Of a stretch of 64,000 nt of DNA, positions 32,922 to 46,192 are shown one piece after another (position 1 is the first letter of the stretch; the number at the start of each line of letters is the position of its first letter). This DNA is from Escherichia coli (GTDB taxonomy: Bacteria; Pseudomonadota; Gammaproteobacteria; Enterobacterales; Enterobacteriaceae), in NCBI RefSeq assembly GCF_013315695.1, contig NZ_CP054353.1, one strand, 5' to 3'. The notes below the pieces were generated by a model that was not told where the DNA came from, searched no databases, and worked only from the letters and a program-made list of their open reading frames with translations. The translations under genes and the position numbers were made by a program.

Positions 32922-33488
32922 ATGAGCGTATTACGTTCGTTATTAACTGCCGGGGTGCTGGCGTCGGGCCTGTTGTGGAGCCTGAACGGAATTACCGCTA
33001 CCCCTGCGGCGCAGGCATCTGGTGATCGCTATGAAGTTACCCAGCAGCGTAACCCGGATGCCGCCTGTCTGGACTGTCATAAACCAGATACCGAAGGTAT
33101 GCATGGCAAACATGCTTCCGTTATCAACCCGAATAACAAACTGCCGGTCACCTGCACCAACTGTCACGGTCAGCCATCACCGCAACACCGCGAAGGGGTG
33201 AAAGATGTGATGCGCTTTAACGAGCCGATGTACAAGGTTGGAGAGCAGAACAGCGTCTGTATGTCCTGCCATTTGCCGGAACAGTTGCAAAAAGCGTTCT
33301 GGCCACACGATGTCCACGTAACCAAAGTGGCGTGCGCCAGCTGCCATTCCCTGCATCCACAGCAAGATACGATGCAGACGTTAAGTGACAAAGGACGGAT
33401 TAAGATTTGCGTCGATTGCCACAGCGATCAGCGCACCAATCCGAACTTTAACCCGGCGTCTGTTCCGTTGCTTAAGGAGCAGCCATGA
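32922..33488 (+). CDS. nrfB: Pentahaem cytochrome c NrfB
   Basis: Five CxxCH motifs (CLDCH, CTNCH, CMSCH, CASCH, CVDCH) in about 188 aa. Confidence 0.9.
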
Positions 33489-34156
33489 CCTGGTCTCGTC
33501 GCCAGTTTCTCACCGGCGTCGGCGTGCTGGCAGCCGTCAGCGGCACCGCAGGACGCGTGGTGGCGAAAACGTTGAATATCAATGGGGTGCGTTACGGCAT
33601 GGTGCATGACGAGTCGTTATGCATCGGCTGTACTGCCTGTATGGATGCTTGTCGGGAAGTGAACAAGGTGCCGGAAGGCGTCTCGCGCCTGACAATTATT
33701 CGTAGCGAGCCGCAGGGCGAATTTCCTGATGTGAAATATCGCTTCTTTCGTAAGTCTTGCCAGCACTGCGATCGTGCGCCGTGCGTTGACGTCTGCCCGA
33801 CCGGTGCGTCTTTTCGCGATGCCGCCAGCGGGATTGTCGATGTAAATCCGGATCTCTGCGTCGGTTGTCAGTACTGCATCGCCGCCTGTCCGTACCGCGT
33901 GCGCTTTATCCATCCGGTCACGAAGACAGCGGACAAATGCGATTTCTGCCGTAAGACCCATTTGCAGGCCGGTAAGCTGCCCGCGTGCGTTGAGGCTTGC
34001 CCGACGAAGGCGCTGACGTTTGGCAATCTGGACGATCCCAACAGTGAGATTTCGCAACTGCTGTGCCAGAAACCCACTTATCGCTACAAGCTGGCGCTGG
34101 GAACCAAACCGAAGCTGTACCGCATACCGTTTAAATACGGGGAGGTGAGCCAATGA
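33485..34156 (+). CDS. nrfC: 4Fe-4S ferredoxin-type subunit NrfC (Tat signal)
   Basis: Twin-arginine motif SRRQFLTG; four Cys clusters ([27 protein letters not shown]). Confidence 0.93.
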
Positions 34157-35109
34157 CGCAGACTTCCGCATTTCATTTTGAATCGCTGGTGTGGGACTGG
34201 CCGATTGCCATCTACCTGTTTTTGATTGGTATTTCTGCCGGTCTGGTGACGCTGGCCGTGCTGTTACGTCGCTTCTACCCGCAGGCGGGCGGTGCAGACA
34301 GTACGTTGCTGCGCACCACGCTGATTGTCGGGCCTGGTGCGGTGATCCTTGGTCTGTTGATCCTCGTCTTCCACCTGACAAGACCGTGGACCTTCTGGAA
34401 GCTGATGTTCCACTACAGTTTTACCTCGGTGATGTCGATGGGGGTGATGCTGTTTCAGCTCTACATGGTGGTGCTGGTGCTGTGGCTGGCGAAAATCTTT
34501 GAACATGATTTGCTTGCCCTGCAACAACGCTGGTTGCCGAAGCTGGGGATCGTGCAAAAGGTTCTGAGCCTGCTGACGCCCGTTCATCGCGGACTGGAAA
34601 CATTGATGCTGGTGCTGGCGGTGTTGTTGGGGGCTTATACCGGCTTTCTGCTGTCGGCGCTGAAATCGTATCCGTTCCTCAATAACCCGATCCTGCCGGT
34701 GCTGTTCCTCTTCTCCGGCATCTCGTCCGGTGCGGCGGTGGCGCTGATCGCCATGGCGATATGTCAGCGCAAAAATCCGCATTCCACGGAAGCGCACTTT
34801 GTACACCGTATGGAGATCCCTGTGGTATGGGGAGAAATTTTCCTGCTGGTGGCGTTTTTTGTCGGTCTGGCGCTGGGCGATGACGGTAAAGTGCGTGCGC
34901 TGGTGGCGGCATTGGGCGGCGGTTTCTGGACGTGGTGGTTCTGGCTTGGTGTCGCCGGGCTGGGGTTGATTGTGCCAATGTTGCTCAAACCGTGGGTCAA
35001 TCGCAGTTCCGGCATTCCTGCCGTGCTGGCGGCGTGTGGGGCCAGCCTGGTCGGCGTGTTGATGCTGCGCTTTTTCATTCTCTACGCCGGGCAGTTAACG
35101 GTGGCGTAA
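34153..35109 (+). CDS. nrfD: Membrane quinol dehydrogenase subunit NrfD
   Basis: Polytopic membrane ORF overlapping the nrfC stop. Confidence 0.93.
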   Translation: MTQTSAFHFESLVWDWPIAIYLFLIGISAGLVTLAVLLRRFYPQAGGADSTLLRTTLIVGPGAVILGLLILVFHLTRPWTFWKLMFHYSFTSVMSMGVMLFQLYMVVLVLWLAKIFEHDLLALQQRWLPKLGIVQKVLSLLTPVHRGLETLMLVLAVLLGAYTGFLLSALKSYPFLNNPILPVLFLFSGISSGAAVALIAMAICQRKNPHSTEAHFVHRMEIPVVWGEIFLLVAFFVGLALGDDGKVRALVAALGGGFWTWWFWLGVAGLGLIVPMLLKPWVNRSSGIPAVLAACGASLVGVLMLRFFILYAGQLTVA

Positions 35110-35164
35110 GCCAGAACAGAGGTGGTTTCTGGACGTATTCCTTCCTGAAGTCGGTTTTCTGGCG

Positions 35165-36847
35165 TTGTTGTTAAGTCTCGGGGTCAACGTGTTGACCCCG
35201 TTGACGGCCTTTGCGGGAGTGCGGTTGCGCTGGCCTGCCATGATGCGACTCACTTGCATCGGCATTCTGGCGCAGTTCGCGCTCCTGCTGCTCGCCTTTG
35301 GCGTACTGACGTATTGTTTTCTCATCAGCGATTTCTCGGTCATTTATGTCGCCCAACATAGCTACAGCCTGCTGTCGTGGGAACTCAAACTGGCGGCGGT
35401 GTGGGGCGGTCATGAAGGTTCGCTGCTGCTTTGGGTGCTGCTGCTTTCCGCCTGGAGCGCGCTGTTTGCCTGGCATTATCGGCAGCAAACCGATCCGCTA
35501 TTTCCGCTGACGCTAGCCGTTTTATCTCTCATGCTCGCCGCACTGCTACTGTTTGTAGTGCTGTGGTCCGATCCCTTCGTGCGGATATTTCCGCCAGCAA
35601 TCGAAGGCCGCGATCTCAATCCGATGCTGCAACATCCCGGTCTTATCTTTCATCCACCGCTGCTTTATCTCGGCTACGGCGGTTTGATGGTGGCGGCGAG
35701 CGTGGCGCTGGCGAGTTTACTGCGCGGCGAGTTTGATGGTACCTGCGCCCGAATTTGCTGGCGCTGGGCACTACCAGGCTGGGGGGCATTAACGGCGGGG
35801 ATCATCCTCGGTTCCTGGTGGGCCTATTGCGAACTGGGCTGGGGCGGCTGGTGGTTCTGGGATCCGGTGGAAAACGCCTCTTTATTACCCTGGCTTTCTG
35901 CCACTGCGCTGCTGCACAGTTTGTCCCTGACACGCCAGCGGGGGATTTTCCGCCACTGGTCGCTGTTACTGGCGATAGTTACTCTGATGCTGTCGCTGCT
36001 GGGCACCTTAATTGTCCGTTCTGGCATTCTGGTTTCGGTTCATGCGTTCGCTCTGGATAACGTCCGCGCCGTGCCGTTGTTCAGCCTGTTTGCACTGATT
36101 AGCCTTGCGTCTCTGGCTCTGTATGGCTGGCGAGCGCGGGACGGTGGCCCGGCGGTGCGTTTTTCGGGGTTATCGCGGGAAATGTTAATCCTCGCTACGC
36201 TGTTGCTGTTTTGCGCAGTGCTACTGATCGTGCTGGTGGGAACGCTTTATCCGATGATTTACGGCCTGCTGGGCTGGGGACGCCTCTCCGTTGGTGCGCC
36301 ATATTTTAACCGCGCAACGTTACCGTTTGGTCTGTTGATGCTGGTGGTGATTGTGCTGGCGACGTTTGTCTCTGGCAAACGCGAGCAGCTTCCGGCGCTG
36401 CTGGCGCATGCGGGCGTGCTGTTATTTGCCGCAGGGATCGTGGTCTCCAGCGTCAGCCGTCAGGAGATCAGCCTGAATTTACAGCCGGGTCAGCAGGTGA
36501 CGCTGGCAGGATACACCTTCCGTTTTGAGCGTCTCGATCTGCAAGCCAGAGGCAATTACACCAGCGAAAAAGCGATAGTGGCACTGTTTGACCATCAGCA
36601 ACGTATTGGTGAACTGACGCCGGAGCGGCGTTTTTACGAAGCACGTCGTCAGCAAATGATGGAACCGTCAATTCGCTGGAACGGCATCCATGACTGGTAT
36701 GCGGTCATGGGCGAGAAAACCGGACCGGATCGTTACGCTTTTCGTTTGTATGTACAAAGCGGTGTGCGCTGGATCTGGGGGGGAGGATTGTTGATGATTG
36801 CGGGCGCATTGTTAAGCGGATGGCGGGGGAGGAAGCGCGATGAATAA
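35165..36847 (+). CDS. nrfE: Haem lyase / CcmF-like NrfE (start codon uncertain; ORF begins with TTG at 35165, GTG at 35189 possible)
   Basis: CcmF-like polytopic protein with WGGWWFWDPVEN motif. Confidence 0.88.
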   Translation: MLLSLGVNVLTPLTAFAGVRLRWPAMMRLTCIGILAQFALLLLAFGVLTYCFLISDFSVIYVAQHSYSLLSWELKLAAVWGGHEGSLLLWVLLLSAWSALFAWHYRQQTDPLFPLTLAVLSLMLAALLLFVVLWSDPFVRIFPPAIEGRDLNPMLQHPGLIFHPPLLYLGYGGLMVAASVALASLLRGEFDGTCARICWRWALPGWGALTAGIILGSWWAYCELGWGGWWFWDPVENASLLPWLSATALLHSLSLTRQRGIFRHWSLLLAIVTLMLSLLGTLIVRSGILVSVHAFALDNVRAVPLFSLFALISLASLALYGWRARDGGPAVRFSGLSREMLILATLLLFCAVLLIVLVGTLYPMIYGLLGWGRLSVGAPYFNRATLPFGLLMLVVIVLATFVSGKREQLPALLAHAGVLLFAAGIVVSSVSRQEISLNLQPGQQVTLAGYTFRFERLDLQARGNYTSEKAIVALFDHQQRIGELTPERRFYEARRQQMMEPSIRWNGIHDWYAVMGEKTGPDRYAFRLYVQSGVRWIWGGGLLMIAGALLSGWRGRKRDE

Positions 36848-37223
36848 AGGGCTTCTCACGCTACTGCTGTTATTTACCTGTTTTGCGCGCGCTCAGGTTG
36901 TAGACACCTGGCAATTCGCCAATCCGCAACAACAGGAACAGGCGTTAACTATTGCCAGCCAGTTACGCTGCCCGCAGTGCCAGAATCAGAACTTACTGGA
37001 ATCCAATGCGCCGGTGGCAGTCAGTATGCGCCATCAGGTTTACAGCATGGTGGCGGAGGGGAAAAGTGAAGTCGAAATCATTGGCTGGATGACCGAACGC
37101 TACGGAGATTTTGTTCGCTATAACCCACCGTTAACCGGTCAGACGCTGGTGTTGTGGGCGCTGCCAGTGGTGTTGTTACTGCTGATGATACTGATCCTCT
37201 GGCGAGTGAGGGCGAAGCGATGA
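36840..37223 (+). CDS. nrfF: CcmH-like thiol-disulfide protein NrfF (127 aa)
   Basis: LRCPQCQNQ motif; overlaps the nrfE stop. Confidence 0.88.
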
Positions 37224-37816
37224 AACAGCCTCAAATACCGGTGAAAATGCTGACAACACTCACGATTTTGATGGTATTTCTCTGTGTCGGCAGTTATCTG
37301 CTTAGTCCAAAATGGCAGGCGGTGCGTGCGGAGTATCAGCGTCAGCGCGATCCGCTACATCAGTTTGCCAGCCAGCAGACCCCGGAAGCGCAGCTTCAGG
37401 CATTGCAGGATAAAATCCGCGCTAATCCACAAAACAGCGAACAATGGGCGTTACTGGGCGAGTATTATCTGTGGCAAAACGATTACAGCAATTCGCTGCT
37501 GGCGTACCGTCAGGCGTTGCAACTACGTGGTGAGAACGCTGAACTGTATGCGGCGCTGGCGACGGTGCTTTATTACCAGGCCAGCCAGCATATGACCGCC
37601 CAGACTCGCGCAATGATCGACAAAGCCCTCGCGCTGGACTCTAACGAAATCACCGCTCTGATGCTGCTGGCTTCCGATGCGTTTATGCAGGCGAATTACG
37701 CGCAAGCCATCGAACTATGGCAAAAAGTGATGGATCTCAACTCACCCCGGATCAACCGGACACAGCTGGTCGAGTCGATTAATATGGCGAAATTGTTGCA
37801 GCGGAGATCAGATTAA
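37220..37816 (+). CDS. nrfG: TPR-containing haem lyase accessory protein NrfG
   Basis: Starts at ATG overlapping the nrfF stop; TPR-like repeats ([25 protein letters not shown]...). Confidence 0.88.
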
Positions 37817-38157
37817 TCATCTGGTGATGAAGATTATGTTATTGAGCTGCATAAAAAATAATCGAATGAACATATGCCAAAAATAATCACCAATCAGTAT
37901 TATTGCAGATTAAACAAATAAAAATCTTTCCATAACAAATGGTTATTCATTAATCCTGCCATAAACTCGCGTTATTATGCATTAATGCAGCGAAAAGCTC
38001 TGTTGTTAAAGGGTTGCGCAACATACCGCGCAAATGATACTGATCATAAGCGTTAAAAAAATCTACAAACCAACGCAACACAATTCATGCCCTGGCAGTA
38101 TGTCACGTTCTCGCGTTTCTGAACGGGGAACGGCGCTCCATTGAGGAAGTTATTCTG

Positions 38158-39471
38158 ATGAAAAATATAAAATTCAGCCTGGCCTGGCAGATTCTGTTTG
38201 CTATGGTGCTGGGCATTCTCCTGGGAAGCTACCTGCACTACCATAGCGACAGCCGCGACTGGCTGGTCGTCAATTTGCTCTCTCCGGCGGGTGATATCTT
38301 CATCCATCTGATCAAAATGATTGTTGTGCCGATTGTGATCTCCACGCTGGTGGTGGGTATCGCGGGTGTTGGTGATGCCAAACAGCTCGGGCGTATTGGC
38401 GCGAAAACCATTATCTACTTCGAGGTGATCACCACCGTCGCCATCATTTTGGGGATCACTCTGGCGAACGTCTTCCAGCCCGGTGCCGGGGTGGATATGT
38501 CGCAGCTGGCGACCGTCGATATCTCGAAATATCAGAGCACTACGGAAGCGGTACAAAGCAGTTCCCACGGCATTATGGGCACGATTTTGTCGCTGGTGCC
38601 GACGAACATTGTGGCGTCGATGGCGAAAGGCGAAATGCTGCCGATCATCTTCTTCTCGGTGCTGTTTGGTCTGGGGCTTTCCTCCCTGCCCGCGACGCAT
38701 CGTGAACCGCTGGTGACCGTGTTCCGCTCCATCTCTGAAACCATGTTTAAAGTGACTCATATGGTGATGCGTTATGCGCCGGTGGGTGTGTTTGCGCTGA
38801 TTGCGGTGACGGTGGCTAACTTTGGTTTCTCGTCTCTGTGGCCACTGGCGAAACTGGTGCTGCTGGTGCATTTCGCCATTCTGTTCTTCGCGCTGGTAGT
38901 GCTGGGAATTGTGGCGCGCCTGTGCGGGTTAAGCGTCTGGATCCTGATTCGTATTCTGAAAGATGAGCTGATTCTGGCGTACTCCACTGCCAGTTCTGAA
39001 AGCGTGCTGCCGCGAATTATTGAGAAGATGGAAGCCTACGGTGCACCGGCGTCGATCACCAGTTTCGTGGTGCCGACCGGTTACTCTTTTAACCTTGATG
39101 GTTCGACGCTGTATCAAAGTATTGCCGCTATTTTCATCGCGCAGTTGTATGGCATTGACCTGTCCATCTGGCAGGAAATCATTCTGGTGCTGACGCTGAT
39201 GGTGACCTCGAAAGGGATTGCTGGCGTGCCGGGCGTGTCGTTTGTGGTGCTGCTGGCAACGCTGGGTAGCGTAGGTATTCCGCTGGAAGGTCTGGCATTT
39301 ATTGCCGGTGTTGACCGTATCCTCGATATGGCGCGTACTGCGCTGAACGTGGTGGGTAATGCGCTGGCGGTGCTGGTGATTGCCAAGTGGGAACACAAAT
39401 TTGACCGTAAGAAAGCGCTGGCTTATGAGCGCGAAGTGCTGGGCAAATTTGATAAAACTGCGGATCAATAA
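38158..39471 (+). CDS. gltP: Proton glutamate/aspartate symporter (437 aa)
   Basis: DAACS family signatures in translation; 437 aa. Confidence 0.95.
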   Translation: MKNIKFSLAWQILFAMVLGILLGSYLHYHSDSRDWLVVNLLSPAGDIFIHLIKMIVVPIVISTLVVGIAGVGDAKQLGRIGAKTIIYFEVITTVAIILGITLANVFQPGAGVDMSQLATVDISKYQSTTEAVQSSSHGIMGTILSLVPTNIVASMAKGEMLPIIFFSVLFGLGLSSLPATHREPLVTVFRSISETMFKVTHMVMRYAPVGVFALIAVTVANFGFSSLWPLAKLVLLVHFAILFFALVVLGIVARLCGLSVWILIRILKDELILAYSTASSESVLPRIIEKMEAYGAPASITSFVVPTGYSFNLDGSTLYQSIAAIFIAQLYGIDLSIWQEIILVLTLMVTSKGIAGVPGVSFVVLLATLGSVGIPLEGLAFIAGVDRILDMARTALNVVGNALAVLVIAKWEHKFDRKKALAYEREVLGKFDKTADQ

Positions 39472-39510
39472 TTGAAGATTGCCGGGGATATCCACCCGGC
39501 AATGTGTGGA

Positions 39511-39548
39511 TGCCTGATGCGACGCTTGCCGCGTCTTATCAGGCCTAC
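39511..39548. repeat. REP element between gltP and yjcO
   Basis: tgcctgatgcgacgcttgccgcgtcttatcaggcctac matches the REP consensus GCCTGATGCGACGCT.GCGCGTCTTATCAGGCCTAC. Confidence 0.65.
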
Positions 39549-39549
39549 A

Positions 39550-40239
39550 TTAACCGTTAGTTAATTTTTCAAACTCTTCACACCCGGTATCAAACCCTTC
39601 CATACAGCTCAGATTCAACCAGTGCAGCGCCTTTTGCTTGTTCTTCTCGATAAAACCTTCTTCACCGTTTAAGAACATCATTCCCGCCCAGTACTCGGAA
39701 TAACCGGTTCGGGAAATCGCAGAGCTGCGTTTGAAATACCAGGTTGCCTTGTCATCGTCGGCCTTAATGCCCACGCCGTTGGCGTAAATCAAACCAAGCA
39801 GCATTTGGGCATCGACGGCAGAGTCGTTCTCCAGATCTTCCGAGGCGTTTTCTAACAGCGAAATCGCCTTTGGATAATCCGGTTTACCCGCTTGCGTATT
39901 TACCAGAATATGCGCCAGCGTTACTTCACCTTCTTTACTGCCCGCTTGCGCCGCTTTCTCTGCAAGAACTTTTGCTTGTGGATAGTCCAGACTGACCGGA
40001 TTGGTGATTTTGATCTGCGCTAACAGCGCGCAGGCATCAGCATCACCGCTGTCGGCGGCTTTCTGTGCCCAATATTCGGCTTTGCTCAAATCGCCGGAGC
40101 TAAACCAGCTGTCGGCAAGAAAATATTGTGCGCGTCGGTCCCCGGCCTCTGCTGCCTTTAAATACTGGCTGCCAGGCTCGGAGTCGTTCGCGTGGGCAAA
40201 GAATGTCAAAAACAACATCAATGCGATAATTTTTTTCAT
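39550..40239 (-). CDS. yjcO: Sel1-repeat (TPR-like) periplasmic protein YjcO (229 aa)
   Basis: Signal peptide plus repeated A..G...A...(Y/W)...A motifs typical of Sel1 repeats. Confidence 0.85.
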   Translation of the reverse strand: MKKIIALMLFLTFFAHANDSEPGSQYLKAAEAGDRRAQYFLADSWFSSGDLSKAEYWAQKAADSGDADACALLAQIKITNPVSLDYPQAKVLAEKAAQAGSKEGEVTLAHILVNTQAGKPDYPKAISLLENASEDLENDSAVDAQMLLGLIYANGVGIKADDDKATWYFKRSSAISRTGYSEYWAGMMFLNGEEGFIEKNKQKALHWLNLSCMEGFDTGCEEFEKLTNG

Positions 40240-40295
40240 TTTGATAATACGATTGGGTAGGGAGTAACCAGTATAAAGAGTTCGAATGGATAAAA

Positions 40296-40320
40296 AAACA
40301 GCCTCCGAAAGGAGGCTGTA
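40296..40320 (-). terminator. Intrinsic terminator of fdhF
   Basis: Hairpin cagcctcc-gaaa-ggaggctg preceded on the plus strand by aaaaaaa (U-tract on the minus strand). Confidence 0.6.
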
Positions 40321-40332
40321 GAAAGGACTGTA

Positions 40333-42480
40333 TTACGCCAGTGCCGCTTCGCGCAGGCGAGTTTTCAACTTGTTGTACTCGTCAATCACGTACTGCTCGG
40401 CGGCGCGCTGATCGGCGATCGGCTCGACGCGCACGGCGCAGTATTTGTATTCCGGCGTTTTCGTAATCGGGCTTAAGTTTTCGGTAACCAGCTCGTTACA
40501 GGCACCAATCCACCACTGGTAGGTCATGTAAATCGCCCCTTTGTTCGGACGATCGCTGACCTGCGCACGGGTGATAATTTTGCCTTTACGCGAGTGCACC
40601 CAAACCAATGCCTCATCTTCAATACCCAGACGTTTGGCGTCTTCGGTATTGATTTGTGCGTAGCCAGGTTCATCAGCCAGCGCCGCCAGTGCCGCACAGT
40701 TACCGGTCATCGAACGGCAAGAGTAGTGACCAACTTCACGCACCGTTGACAGTACCATCGGATACTCGTCGGTGAGTTTGTCGATTGGCGCTACCCAGTC
40801 GCAGGTGAAGAACTGCGCCAGACCGTTCGGGGTATCAAACTTCTCTTTAAACAGATAAGAAGTCCCCTGATCGGCATCTGAAGTATCGCGGCAAGGCCAC
40901 TGAATGAAGCCCAGTTCGCCCATTTTCTCGTAAGTCGCACCGTAGAAATCCGGGCACAGATGACGCAACTCATCCCAGATCTCCTGGGTGTTGTTGTAGT
41001 GCATCGGATAACCCATACGGGTGGCGATTTCACTGATGATTTGCCAGTCCGTTTTCAAATCCCATTTCGGTTCAACTGCTTTAAAGAAACGCTGGAAGCC
41101 ACGGTCAGCCGCAGTAAACACGCCTTCATGCTCGCCCCATGACGTTGACGGTAAAATGACATCCGCCGCCGACGCGGTTTTGGTCATAAAGATGTCCTGA
41201 ACGATGACCAGTTCCAGATCTTCAAAGGCTTTACGTACTGCCGACAGCTCCGCGTCAGTTTGTAGCGGATCTTCGCCCATAATGTACGCGGCACGCACTT
41301 CACCATGCTCTGCGCGGTGCGGCAGCTCGCTGATGCGATAACCGGTATGAGCGGGCAGGCTTTCCACGCCCCAGGCTTTGGCGAATTTCTCGCGGTTAGC
41401 CGGATCTTTCACATACTGGTATCCCGGATACGTATCCGGCAGCGCGCCCATATCGCAGGCACCCTGCACGTTGTTCTGACCACGAACCGGGTTTACACCC
41501 GCATGCGGCTTACCGAGGTTACCAGTCAGCATCGCGAGGCTGGTCAGAGAACGCACGGTTTCCACGCCCTGGTAGAACTGGGTTACACCCATGCCCCACA
41601 GGATGGCGGCGCTTTTCGCCTGGGCATACATCCGCGCCGCCTGACGAATCTCACTGGCGCTGACGCCGGTGATATCTTCAACCGACTCCGGCGTGTAGCC
41701 TTCAACGATTTTACGATACTCTTCAAAGCCTTCTGTACGGGAAGCGACGAACGCTTTGTCGTACAGATTTTCTTCAATAATGACATGGCCCATCGCATTC
41801 AACAGCGCGATGTTCGAGCCGTTTTTCAATGCAATGTGCATGTCAGCAATGCGCGCAGTTTCAATTTTGCGCGGATCGCAGACGATAATTTTCGCCCCGT
41901 TACGTTTAGCGTTAATTACGTGATTCGCCACGATTGGGTGGGAATCCGCCGGGTTATACCCGAAAACGAACACTAAATCGGTATTATCAATTTCGTTAAT
42001 AGCATTGCTCATTGCGCCATTACCGACCGATTGGTGCAGACCTGCAACCGATGGGCCGTGTCAGACACGAGCGCAGCAGTCAACGTTATTGGTACCAATA
42101 ACGGCGCGCGCAAATTTTTGCATTACATAGTTGGTTTCGTTACCCGTACCACGCGAGGAGCCGGTCGTCTGGATGGCATCCGGACCGTACTTCTCTTTGA
42201 TGGCGCTCAGGCGCTCGGCAACGTAATTCAGTGCCTCATCCCAGGAAACAGGTTCGAGTTTGCCGCCACGCTGGCGACGGATCATGGGGGTTTTCAGGCG
42301 CGGGGTCAGGATCTGGGTATCGTTAATGAAGTCCCAGCCATAATAACCCTTCAGACACAGGGTACCCTGGTTGGTTTTCCCCTGCGCTGCCTCCGCCCGG
42401 ACGATTTTGCCGTTATCGACGACCAGGTTGATTTTGCAACCTGATGCGCAATAGGGGCAAACCGTGACGACTTTTTTCAT
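40333..42480 (-). CDS. fdhF: Formate dehydrogenase H, selenoprotein (715 aa; in-frame UGA at 42058-42060 decoded as selenocysteine)
   Basis: Two ORF-track segments (42061-42480 and 40333-42012) are in the same frame and separated only by TGA; N-terminus MKKVVTVCPYCASGCKINLVV...; SECIS-like hairpin immediately 3' of the UGA. Confidence 0.95.
42010..42057 (-). other. SECIS element (selenocysteine insertion hairpin) within the fdhF mRNA
   Basis: mRNA sense reads UGA CAC GGC CCA UCG GUU GCA GGU CUG CAC CAA UCG GUC GGU AAU; matches the fdhF SECIS stem-loop by recall. Confidence 0.75.
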
Positions 42481-42529
42481 CGGTCTCGCTCCAGTTAATC
42501 AAATCACGCATACGCGCTCTCGACTACAG

Positions 42530-42547
42530 TATGCATCTTTTATGCCA
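42530..42547 (-). promoter_or_regulatory. Sigma-54 (-24/-12) promoter of fdhF
   Basis: Minus-strand TGGCAT-AAAAGA-TGCATA fits the TGGCAC-N5-TTGCA consensus about 50 bp upstream of the fdhF start; FhlA-dependent by established knowledge. Confidence 0.7.
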
Positions 42548-42677
42548 CATTTTATTTGGGGTCATTCCCTGATATTACGGGCACTATTTATTCAAAACTC
42601 TGACGAAAAACAGGCTGTCGTCAGTTTTGACGTGACGAAACGAAATACCGCGTGACAGCCATCACGCGGTAGACATT

Positions 42678-44144
42678 TTATTTTTTCTCGACGACGGGAG
42701 CCGCCTGATACCCGCCGCCCAGCGATTTCATCAACTGAATGCTTTGGATCACCCGGCGGCTGTCCAGCATCAGTAATGACATCTCCTCGGCAAGCACTGG
42801 CAACCGGGCTTCGGTGGCCTGTAAGCGGCTGGTTAAGCCGCGTTGATAGGCGGCCTCGGCAGCGCGCTGGGTGAAGCGCGTTGCTTCCACGCGTTCAGCC
42901 TGCATCTCTCGCTCGTCGTTAAGCGTTTGCAGACGCGTGCCGTTGACGGCAACGTCGCGCACCGCGTTCAGTACTGACTGGTTGTAACGTTCAATCATCA
43001 TGTTGCTGGCGGCGCGCGTGCCTTCGAGATTGGCATTCAACCGTCCACCGTCAAACAGCGGCAATTTCAGACCTGGGATAAAGTTGAACTGGCGACTGGT
43101 TTTTTTGAATAAGGTATCCAGGTGGATAGAATCCAGGCCGAAAAACGCTTTGATATCAAAGCTCGGATAGAACAGCGCCCGCGCGGAATCCACCTGATCT
43201 AATGACGCCTGAACATACCAGCGCATGGCTTGCAGATCCGGGCGTCTGGCGAGCAACTCATAAGAGAGTGTTGCCGGAATGCCGGTCTGGACTCGCGGTA
43301 ATGCCACCGGTTTGAGCTCCGGCATATCGCTGGCGCCCGCGCCAATCAATGCGCGCAGAGATTCCCGCGTTTCAGTGATTTGCCCTTTAACGGCAGCAAT
43401 TTGTTTATCGACCGCCAGAATCTGTGCCCGCGCGCCGTGGAAAGGCACTTGCGCTTCCAGACCGTGCGCCACTTTACTCTGGTGCGCTTTTACCGCGTAA
43501 TCAATCACATTGCGTGTTTGTTCTAACAGATCGAGCATCTGATAGCTGGCCTGCATACTGTAATAAAGCTGCGCTACGCCCGTGGTCAGCGATAGCTCTA
43601 CTGCTGCGGTTTCTGCCAGCGCGGCATTATGCGCGCCAATGGCGGCGGCAACCGCTGAGCGATGCACACCCCACAAATCGAGATCCAGTCCGGCAAACAA
43701 ACCTACTGTGGCTTCCGTATAGTACGGCCCGTCCATCCCCAGTGCGGGCGCATCCATCGCATAAGGGCTTAAAAAGCCGTTCGCCGAGACGCGTTGGCGG
43801 TTAAGCATCCCTAACGCTGCCACCTGCAACTGTGAACCGGCATCTAACAAATCGGCCTGCGATTGCGCTTTTTCTTCCCGCAGTTTCGCTTCGGCGAGGG
43901 TGTGTGAACCACTTAGCGTCCGTTGGATCAAAGCATCCAACTGCGGGTCATTGAGTTGTTTCCACCACTGCGCCTGCGGCCAGACGGAGCTGGCAAGATG
44001 AATATCATCGGCCAGTTTGATTTGTTCCGGTTTGAGCTGTTGATGAGGCGCAGAATCCTTACGTACCAGGGCACAGCCGGAAATCAGCGTCGTGCTGCCG
44101 AGAATGCTGCACAACAGCAGGCGTGAAAGTTGACGATTGATCAT
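42678..44144 (-). CDS. mdtP: Outer-membrane efflux channel (TolC-like), multidrug resistance MdtP (488 aa)
   Basis: Lipoprotein signal (LISGCAL); OMF family; last gene of mdtNOP. Confidence 0.9.
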   Translation of the reverse strand: MINRQLSRLLLCSILGSTTLISGCALVRKDSAPHQQLKPEQIKLADDIHLASSVWPQAQWWKQLNDPQLDALIQRTLSGSHTLAEAKLREEKAQSQADLLDAGSQLQVAALGMLNRQRVSANGFLSPYAMDAPALGMDGPYYTEATVGLFAGLDLDLWGVHRSAVAAAIGAHNAALAETAAVELSLTTGVAQLYYSMQASYQMLDLLEQTRNVIDYAVKAHQSKVAHGLEAQVPFHGARAQILAVDKQIAAVKGQITETRESLRALIGAGASDMPELKPVALPRVQTGIPATLSYELLARRPDLQAMRWYVQASLDQVDSARALFYPSFDIKAFFGLDSIHLDTLFKKTSRQFNFIPGLKLPLFDGGRLNANLEGTRAASNMMIERYNQSVLNAVRDVAVNGTRLQTLNDEREMQAERVEATRFTQRAAEAAYQRGLTSRLQATEARLPVLAEEMSLLMLDSRRVIQSIQLMKSLGGGYQAAPVVEKK

Positions 44145-46192
44145 TGCGTGGCTCCTTGTGCCTGTTCCGTGGCGGGCGTTAATGCCGGGGCTGTCCAGTC
44201 TGGCAAGCGGGCGAAAAGCTGGCAGACGTGTTGCTCCTGTTTTAATAAGGTCGGCAGGATGGCCTGCGAGGCGGGTGTTTCTTCAAGCGTTATTTGAGGA
44301 GAACGACTGAGTGCGGTTGCCAGACCGGCGGCGTATTTCTCCAGGGCGTCGGCAAACTGACCAGCTCTGTCCGGCTGTAGTGCGTTATCCAGCGCCTGCG
44401 CCGAGTTCCAGGTGGCATCCCAGGCGTGAAGAATATCGCGACCCTGACGAATAACCGTTTGCGAACGTTCAATCAGTAAGGCGCGTTCTTCGCTGTCCAG
44501 TTGACGCTCCAGCGCCACGCGTTGGCACATCTCTTCACAGGCATTAAACGCCGCATGCAGACCTATGCGAATTTGCAGATAAGTGCGCAGAGCCGTGACT
44601 TCCTGCTGCCGTGGGATCCGCATTACTTTACTTAACATACCCAGCGCGCCAGCCAGTTTTTGCGGCAGGGTGCGCGCTTCACTTTCAGGCCAGACAAAGG
44701 TGTAAATCACCGCGGACACCACGGTACCAATAATGATACCCAGGGCGCGATCGCGAATTTCCACCAGGTCGTACACCGGGCCAAAAACGTTTTCGAGCGT
44801 GGCGAGCGCGAAGGTGACCACCATCTGTGTGCCGATATAAGAAGAGCGTTCAGAGCTGGTGGCAATCCATGCGCCCAACAGGAAAATCGGTGCCAGCACA
44901 AACAGCAATTCGACAATATTGTCCAGCCAGGGCATGACCAGTAGCGTGAATAACAGCGCCAGAATCGCGCCGCAAAAGGCCCCGCCAAAACGCAGCACCA
45001 TCTTCTGGTACGACGAACCAACATTCGGGTTAGCGACGATCACGCAGGTCAGCATACAGGTGTGAATGCCTTCCCAGTCCACGCCGCTGTAGAAGGTGTA
45101 ACAGATCAAACAGGCGAGCAGCGTTTTTACCGCGTAGCGCATATAGTCTGGATTGGTAAAAGCGTCGGCGACCATTGATGGCGGTTTGGTGGCGGGCGTT
45201 GGCGGCGTATTCGGGTCCATCTGACCCAGTTGCAACAATGTCTGGCAGATATTCTCCAGGTTACATTCCCGTGCCGCCATCGCTTCACTTTCAGTGATCC
45301 GCCAGTCGCTTTGCCAGCACTGACCTTCGGCAATGGCATGCTGCAGCTTGTTGATTTCTGAGGCTAATTTTTGCCGGAATTCAATAATTGCCTGAGAATC
45401 AGCAAAAGAGGTGGGATCGTAGCGATTCAGCGTCGAGTAAATGTAGGTTACCGTTGCCACACAGCTTTGCCACCATGCGCTCTGAGTACGCCAGTCGGCA
45501 TCGTCCGCGAGGCAAAAGACATTGAGTTTTTGCAGCGCCAGCGCCTCTCTTTCAATCCGCGTTTCGGGTAGCGGTGTGAGGCTGTTCGTCAGGTGGCTAA
45601 TGGCATCATCAAGCCGATCATTAAGCGCCTGATGCATCTGCGTGATAGCGCGGCTGGGAAACCACAGCACGCCGATTAACGTCATCAGCAAGGTTGGATA
45701 GAGGCCAACAACGATACACCACAGCGTTAAGCGCACGACCACTTCCGGATAGTCGAGCATGGCGGGGAAGGTTTGCCCGTAAATGGCGACAATGGCGACA
45801 GCGAAAAAGACCAGTCCCAGCCGATGGGTGCGCATCAAAAACATACATCCCATCAGGATCGGCCCTGCGATGATCAATCGGATCAACGGTTCGCCGTATG
45901 ACCATTTGTAGATCAAAAACAGGCTGCCGATCTCCAGCACCGTGGCAACCACAAACAAGATCGCGACAAATTTGGTGTAAAACGCGTTGGACTGAATACC
46001 GTAAAACAGCACCGCCAGCGATAACGCCACAAAGGGGATCTCGAAGGTCATCGAGATCAGAATCACCAGCAGGCAGCCTACCCAGAGTTGCACGGTCTGC
46101 GGCACACGACCTGGCCGCCGCTCGCTTAACTCTTCATGAAAGAACGCCAGCAGCCTGACCACCGGTAATGGCAGGGAGTTGAGCGCGCTCAT
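44141..46192 (-). CDS. mdtO: Inner-membrane efflux component MdtO (FUSC/AaeB-like, 683 aa)
   Basis: Polytopic ORF overlapping mdtP (ATGA) and mdtN. Confidence 0.9.
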   Translation of the reverse strand: MSALNSLPLPVVRLLAFFHEELSERRPGRVPQTVQLWVGCLLVILISMTFEIPFVALSLAVLFYGIQSNAFYTKFVAILFVVATVLEIGSLFLIYKWSYGEPLIRLIIAGPILMGCMFLMRTHRLGLVFFAVAIVAIYGQTFPAMLDYPEVVVRLTLWCIVVGLYPTLLMTLIGVLWFPSRAITQMHQALNDRLDDAISHLTNSLTPLPETRIEREALALQKLNVFCLADDADWRTQSAWWQSCVATVTYIYSTLNRYDPTSFADSQAIIEFRQKLASEINKLQHAIAEGQCWQSDWRITESEAMAARECNLENICQTLLQLGQMDPNTPPTPATKPPSMVADAFTNPDYMRYAVKTLLACLICYTFYSGVDWEGIHTCMLTCVIVANPNVGSSYQKMVLRFGGAFCGAILALLFTLLVMPWLDNIVELLFVLAPIFLLGAWIATSSERSSYIGTQMVVTFALATLENVFGPVYDLVEIRDRALGIIIGTVVSAVIYTFVWPESEARTLPQKLAGALGMLSKVMRIPRQQEVTALRTYLQIRIGLHAAFNACEEMCQRVALERQLDSEERALLIERSQTVIRQGRDILHAWDATWNSAQALDNALQPDRAGQFADALEKYAAGLATALSRSPQITLEETPASQAILPTLLKQEQHVCQLFARLPDWTAPALTPATEQAQGATQ

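Follow-up and report, generated by a model that had tools for sequence, protein, structure and literature searches.

The mdtP-fdhF intergenic region of Escherichia coli: a sigma-54 promoter, a conserved half-site array of the FhlA type and a probable mdtP terminator

How much of the DNA that separates mdtP from fdhF in Escherichia coli serves the expression of fdhF, and how much of it belongs to the end of mdtP? The region governs the timing of formate dehydrogenase H synthesis in E. coli and, with it, the conversion of formate to H2 and CO2 in fermentation; this enzyme is the formate-oxidising part of formate hydrogenlyase. Work on formate sensing and on sigma-54 enhancers has used the region as a model since the late 1980s, and it is relevant to biohydrogen engineering. 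The fdhF control region is already known, and is indeed textbook matter; the observation examined here is confirmed and is nothing new in kind. What the re-examination adds is a set of exact coordinates in the stretch of DNA analysed, a distinction between the enhancer and the mdtP terminator, and an 80-species footprint of the half-site array and of its phasing.

The analysis deals with a 64-kb stretch of E. coli DNA (hereafter, the window). Its positions 42481-42677 very probably form the control region of fdhF: a sigma-54 promoter and, about 100 bases upstream of it, an enhancer through which FhlA would respond to formate. They also hold the probable terminator of mdtP. These parts are considered below.

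Layout of the intergenic region

Over 361 bases around the site, chromosomal matches of 95-100% identity to the window are present in 5419 of the 5426 complete E. coli genomes. The window differs from K-12 MG1655 at four of the 361 positions (42556, 42670, 42700 and 42702). The RefSeq annotation of identical DNA has mdtP on one side and fdhF, the gene of the selenocysteine-containing formate dehydrogenase H, on the other. A sequence-only reading had taken 42481-42677 for the fdhF upstream region and had placed the mdtP stop, at 42678, directly against it. Both statements hold: the stretch is exactly the mdtP-fdhF intergenic region, delimited by the mdtP stop codon and by the fdhF start codon, in agreement with RefSeq. 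The features considered here are the following, with minus-sign positions counted from the predicted transcription start.

42678-42680, minus strand: stop codon TAA of mdtP (sequence and ORF list; the mdtP ORF is 42678-44144; RefSeq agrees)
42646-42671, minus strand: hairpin with a stem of 11 bp and a 4-nt loop, probably the Rho-independent terminator of mdtP (terminator scan)
42652-42656, minus strand: distal conserved GTCAC, -135 to -131, conservation 50-90%
42618-42639, minus strand: putative enhancer core TTCGTCACGTCAAAACTGACGA, -118 to -97, at least 75-100% conserved
42600-42609, minus strand: putative promoter-proximal enhancer element TTTTCGTCAG, -88 to -79, at least 75-90% conserved
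42548-42599, minus strand: A/T-rich spacer and candidate looping region, with conserved TTTTG (42597-42593) and CGTAA (42579-42575)
42530-42547, minus strand: sigma-54 (-24/-12) promoter of fdhF, TGGCATAAAAGATGCATA, with GG at 42546-42545 and GC at 42534-42533
42481-42521, minus strand: predicted 41-nt 5′ leader of fdhF, with the Shine-Dalgarno sequence GGAG at 42492-42489
40333-42480, minus strand: fdhF coding sequence, 715 codons, ATG at 42480 (ORF list and RefSeq)

In the ORF list, the fdhF frame consists of 139 codons (139 aa), an in-frame TGA at 42063-42061 and then 575 codons (575 aa). On the minus strand, this in-frame UGA is the selenocysteine codon. A SECIS hairpin is found inside fdhF at 42068-42014 (minus strand; Rfam SECIS_2, 87.1 bits, E = 3e-19). 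The matches of the Rfam scan are confined to the SECIS within fdhF, and no RNA family was matched in the mdtP-fdhF intergenic region. A plus-strand ORF at 42464-42655 (63 aa, GTG start) was discarded; nothing supports it, and it runs across the fdhF start as well as the leader, the promoter and the enhancer.

The part of the region that holds promoter and enhancer, 42528-42640 (113 nt), is found once in each of 5419 genomes out of the 5426. In 5327 records its identity is 99% or more, and in 28 of 40 rows sampled evenly down the ranking it is 100%. RefSeq annotates no feature in it. As side observations, the region is absent from 7 of the 5426 genomes, one genome has two copies, and 4 of 5420 matches to this chromosomal region are on records typed as plasmids.

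The half-site array and the mdtP terminator

For the promoter as well as for the enhancer, the deciding evidence is position, strand and conservation, not motif counts. Upstream of the spacer, five CGWCA/TGWCG pentamers are found in 42600-42640 (plus-strand starts 42601, 42616, 42619, 42628 and 42633). This is the sole cluster in the window with at least four such pentamers in 45 nt; the pentamer was picked after the sequence had been seen, and a cluster of this kind appeared in 8 of 100 first-order Markov simulations. The core contains the palindrome CGTCA-AAAC-TGACG (42632-42619, minus strand, centre at about -104.5), preceded by an overlapping TCGTCA. In its degenerate 14-bp form, CGWCA-N4-TGWCG, the palindrome is found once in the window for 0.19 expected. 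Its centre lies 78.5 nt upstream of the -24 element, and the half-site array spans -135 to -79. The array thus lies in the range, roughly 70-150 bp upstream of the sigma-54 promoter, that is expected of an FhlA-dependent upstream activating sequence.

Conservation was studied in fdhF loci sampled at species level across Enterobacteriaceae and their relatives, 80 loci in all. For the footprint, sequences were anchored on the sigma-54 motif and aligned, near-identical Escherichia sequences were excluded, and identity to the window was counted in 73 species. In these 73 non-Escherichia species, 75-100% identity is observed for the block TTCG.CACGTCAA..TGACGA (42639-42618, -118 to -97), for the block TTTTCGTCAG (42609-42600, -88 to -79), and for the two spacer blocks, TTTTG at 42597-42593 and CGTAA at 42579-42575. 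Both promoter hexamers (42547-42530; -26 to -9) are at least 75-90% conserved. Upstream of 42640, the sequence is essentially unconserved in the 73 species, as is to be expected where the upstream gene differs among genera; the sole exception is GTCAC at 42656-42652.

The arrangement of the half-sites is conserved as well. The exact palindrome is present in 72 of the 80 fdhF loci, and (C/T)GWCA-N4-TGWCG in 77 of 78 promoter-anchored sequences. The palindrome centre and TGGCA at -24 are separated by 78-79 nt in 69 of these 77 sequences; in the other 8, the separation is 69-70 nt, about one helical turn less. In these 77 sequences, TCG(A/T)CA or a close variant always precedes the palindrome, and CGTCA is found exactly 27 nt after the palindrome start in 70. 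In 68 of the 77, a GTCA precedes the palindrome by 21-25 nt; among these are genera that lack the hairpin and have another upstream gene.

Three of the 80 loci do not have an intact control region: Entomohabitans teleogrylli (L078), Leclercia sp. 29361 (L082) and Enterobacter sp. BIGb0383 (L085). At positions 900-1200 of these loci, the -12 element, the -24 element or most of the palindrome is gone, and remnants of the other blocks remain. From their sequences, they look like cases of decayed sigma-54/FhlA control.

The spacer between array and promoter is A/T-rich. An IHF-assisted loop is unsupported, as no IHF consensus WATCAANNNNTTR was found with up to one mismatch in 42481-42677. Several other features of the spacer may be mentioned. 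Its first block reads TTTTGACC in most genera, resembling a further TGAC half-site, and TTTTGAAT in E. coli. The conserved stretch CGTAA..TC extends over 42579-42571. In E. coli clone D i2 (L088, NC_017651.1), a 10-bp tandem duplication, TTTTGAATAA, is present in the spacer at window position 42598/42597. It adds about one helical turn; a single base in mdtP is the sole other difference in the region. This duplication and the two spacing classes would be consistent with face-of-helix constraints on looping.

At the other end of the region, a hairpin at 42671-42646 starts 7 nt after the mdtP TAA; 6 of the pairs of its stem are G-C. The fold has a calculated energy of -19.6 kcal/mol (z = -4.4 versus shuffles), and the tail that follows, UUUCGUUUCG at 42645-42636, is only moderately U-rich. 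The outer pair of the stem varies, the window having A-U, K-12 G.U and E. albertii G-C, and a Kluyvera sequence (L028) keeps the stem despite changes on both arms. Apart from GTCAC, the stretch 42646-42677 is not conserved outside Escherichia and a few genera. The hairpin is best read as the probable terminator of mdtP, that is, of mdtNOP.

The distal GTCAC (42652-42656) lies in the 3′ arm of this hairpin. It behaves like a part of the enhancer since it is conserved in genera without the hairpin, and it is probably a fourth half-site embedded in the terminator. The same DNA may therefore act as terminator in the RNA and as enhancer in the DNA. One may go further and imagine an enhancer more elaborate than the textbook picture with two elements. 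The distal GTCAC would have such a dual role, the conserved blocks of the spacer (CGTAATATC at 42579-42571, and the A-tract that precedes -24) would either encode an intrinsic bend or be bound by a further architectural or regulatory factor not yet described, and indels of a helical turn would be tolerated. We hold this extended picture to be rather doubtful.

It may also be asked whether there is an enhancer at all. The repeats of 42600-42677 might represent only the 3′ end of mdtNOP, namely the terminator hairpin and its surroundings, together with chance repeats. The strength of the hairpin and its closeness to the mdtP stop agree with the terminator criteria, its stem varies by changes that preserve pairing, and this part is poorly conserved beyond a few genera. 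However, the CGTCA/TGACG array at 42600-42639 is located downstream of the hairpin, and its conservation extends to genera that have a gene other than mdtP upstream. Furthermore, the array keeps a fixed distance to the sigma-54 element, not to the upstream gene, and it recurs at other promoters of the FhlA regulon. An explanation without enhancer is, on these grounds, very improbable.

The putative enhancer core is thus 42600-42639, to which 42652-42656 probably has to be added; it does not cover all of 42600-42677. The sequence-only reading had proposed the repeats of the whole interval as a possible FhlA upstream activating sequence. This proposal stands for the gtcgtcag/tgacg motifs of 42600-42639, in view of the footprint and of the presence of the palindrome at hydN and hyfA. 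It does not extend to most of 42646-42677, which is mainly the mdtP terminator hairpin and is poorly conserved except for GTCAC.

FhlA and the related sites of its regulon

The shared motif and the literature point, indirectly but consistently, to FhlA as the protein that would bind the array at 42600-42639. The fdhF promoter and its upstream activating sequence were reportedly mapped by Birkmann & Bock in 1989, by Schlensog et al. in 1994 and by Leonhartsberger et al. in 2000. We take the K-12 fdhF enhancer to lie about 110 bp upstream of the start, in agreement with the centre of the footprint at about -105. According to secondary literature, FhlA, activated by formate, binds upstream of fdhF and of hyc, on one face of the DNA (PMC11291172, PMC11841067).

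In K-12, (C/T)GWCA and TGWC(G/A) half-sites are likewise found upstream of the sigma-54 promoters of hydN-hypF, hyfA, hycA-hycB and hycA-hypA. The palindrome CGWCA-N4-TGWCG occurs once near hydN (L004, 3221-3234) and once near hyfA (L005, 3036-3049), about 68 and 102 nt upstream of the respective sigma-54 motifs. These enhancers differ from each other in their distance to the promoter, which is about 68, 78 (fdhF) or 102 nt. A copy of the palindrome with one mismatch, TGTCATTTTTGACG, is present in the hycA-hycB spacer. In the K-12 hycA-hypA spacer, the palindrome was not found with up to one mismatch, and related direct repeats, TGTCATTTCGACATCATCGACA, are present instead. The palindrome was therefore rejected as a universal FhlA site; it is one arrangement of a shared half-site.

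Two further observations concern the hyc locus. The hycA-hycB and hycA-hypA spacers share a near-identical block, TGTCATTT(T)CGACA..CATCGACA (K-12, L002, 10865-10925 and 11540-11580). The hycA-hycB spacer, which is presumably the enhancer for hyp, also carries TGTCATTTTTGACGAAAAC, resembling the fdhF core.

With the published 14-column FhlA matrix (PMC7658346), a weak discriminator that does not single out the palindrome, the best score of the region is that of the palindrome, 8.56 bits, which ranks 70 in the window; the hyc-hyp site scores 15.38 bits. A full-text literature search with the string of the palindrome gave no hits other than primer lists unrelated to it.

Considering that the enhancer is real, its main activator might be another enhancer-binding protein, most likely HyfR, the paralogue of FhlA. 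The same class of palindrome lies upstream of hyfA, and sequence alone cannot tell the paralogues apart. Skibinski et al. in 2002 reportedly found that hyfA responds to both HyfR and FhlA. Such a role of HyfR at fdhF is at odds with published genetic work and with reviews, in which FhlA is given as the activator of fdhF in E. coli and in Salmonella (PMC11291172, PMC11841067, PMC3844500). Moreover, the activity of the Proteus mirabilis fdhF promoter is lowered in an fhlA mutant, as it is in an rpoN mutant (PMC7658346). We would give another main activator as slight a chance as the absence of an enhancer, and FhlA is retained below as the likely activator.

The sigma-54 promoter and a model of fdhF activation

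The promoter consists, on the minus strand, of TGGCAT (42547-42542), AAAAGA (42541-42536) and TGCATA (42535-42530). Its GG and GC doublets are 10 bp apart, which is the canonical sigma-54 geometry. With the same doublets, TGGCATAAAAGATGCA at 42547-42532 (minus strand) conforms to a TGGCAC-N5-TTGCW-like pattern. The motif is on the same strand as fdhF and starts 67 nt before the ATG at 42480. TGG[CT]A[TCA]-N6-TGCA is kept in 77 of the 80 fdhF loci, 51-84 nt before the ATG. The promoter scan found no promoter of the sigma-70 type in 42300-42900.

Taken by itself, the -24/-12 pattern is not above chance: the loose form TGGCAY-N6-TGCW occurs once in the 64-kb window for 0.93 expected. With an RpoN matrix (PMC7658346, Table 2), the fdhF promoter scores 13.37 bits and ranks third among all window positions. 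The two better matches are both intragenic and antisense to their ORF. The first, TGGCACAGCAGTTGCG (16.98 bits, 34053-34068, minus strand), is within a 223-aa plus-strand ORF at 33485-34156, which matches nrfC by its size and gene order. The second, TGGCAGACGTGTTGCT (14.99 bits, 44220-44235, plus strand), is within mdtO. Both are absent from the main-text tables of the K-12 ChIP-seq paper (PMC4591121). It may be noted that the coordinate offset of the window relative to MG1655 is not the same at nrfC as at fdhF; the difference, 563 nt, implies an insertion or deletion somewhere between these genes (window about 34156-42480).

Published binding data bear directly on the fdhF motif. The window 17-mer GTGGCATAAAAGATGCA is identical, letter for letter, to the K-12 MG1655 sigma-54 ChIP-seq site OS41 upstream of fdhF. 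This site has a fold-above-threshold value of 41 and is flagged in EcoCyc as an experimentally confirmed promoter (PMC4591121). In vitro, the fdhF-mdtP spacer gave a peak in genomic SELEX with the reconstituted RpoN holoenzyme (PMC8743547). In Salmonella Typhimurium, the counterpart site TGGCATAAAACATGCATA is bound in ChIP-chip and fdhF is 29-fold sigma-54 dependent, FhlA being named as the activator (PMC3844500). Occupancy of the window promoter by sigma-54 would thus be supported by its identity to the bound K-12 site. This identity and the conservation bear out the earlier proposal that TGGCAT-N6-TGCATA, at 42530-42547 on the minus strand, is a good -24/-12 element. That the motif is a chance or silent sigma-54 site, fdhF transcription coming instead from a sigma-70 promoter or from mdtP read-through, is the least credible of the explanations considered, for although such a pattern is expected about once per window, two intragenic matches score higher and many E. 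coli sigma-54 sites are transcriptionally inactive (PMC4591121), this one has the correct orientation and place before the ATG, is kept across the species sampled, is bound in K-12 in vivo and lies in a spacer bound in vitro, and is separated from mdtP by the probable terminator, with no sigma-70-like promoter found nearby.

From these elements, a model of fdhF activation may be proposed. Sigma-54 RNA polymerase would bind the -24/-12 element at 42547-42530 and form a closed complex unable to start alone. FhlA, an enhancer-binding ATPase activated by cytoplasmic formate, would bind the (C/T)GWCA half-sites that are arrayed at about 80-135 bp from the start, on its upstream side. This array would comprise the core (42639-42618), the proximal element (42609-42600) and the distal GTCAC (42656-42652), and FhlA would oligomerise on it. 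Looping of the A/T-rich spacer, of about 50 bp, would then bring FhlA into contact with sigma-54, and ATP hydrolysis would open the promoter. Transcription would begin near 42521 and produce the 41-nt leader. In parallel, the hairpin at 42671-42646 would end the mdtNOP transcript and insulate fdhF from read-through.

The predicted start in this model follows a published rule, according to which transcription begins 19 bp downstream of the motif centre (PMC4591121). The rule gives a G at 42521 (± 2) and reproduces the 41-nt distance to the fdhF start tabulated in the same paper.

The same architecture is found in known systems. The K-12 fdhF promoter and upstream activating sequence represent the same locus with an identical 17-mer, and 42528-42640 differs only at 42556, in the spacer. 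Within the control region, the differences between K-12 and the window are strain-level single bases, at 42556 and at 42670, the outer pair of the terminator; no functional difference is claimed for them. In Salmonella enterica fdhF (STM4285), the orthologous site TGGCATAAAACATGCATA differs by one base, a G-to-C change in the promoter spacer. Salmonella fdhF has TCGACA as its first half-site, where the window has TCGTCA, and upstream of the hairpin the two sequences diverge. The enhancer core and the leader of S. enterica arizonae are almost identical to those of the window.

Promoters of the NtrC-dependent glnAp2 type share with the model for fdhF an activator array about 100 bp from the -24/-12 element, looping and ATP hydrolysis (PMC3844500). 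However, they use another activator and another site. The signal at fdhF would be the binding of formate and not phosphorylation, and no IHF consensus was found in the fdhF spacer.

A last observation concerns the leader. The sequence GCGCGTATGCGTGATTTGATTAACTGGAGCGAGACCG (42481-42520), which matches no Rfam family, is nearly invariant across E. coli, E. albertii and S. enterica arizonae. Conservation is lower in the spacer that precedes the promoter.
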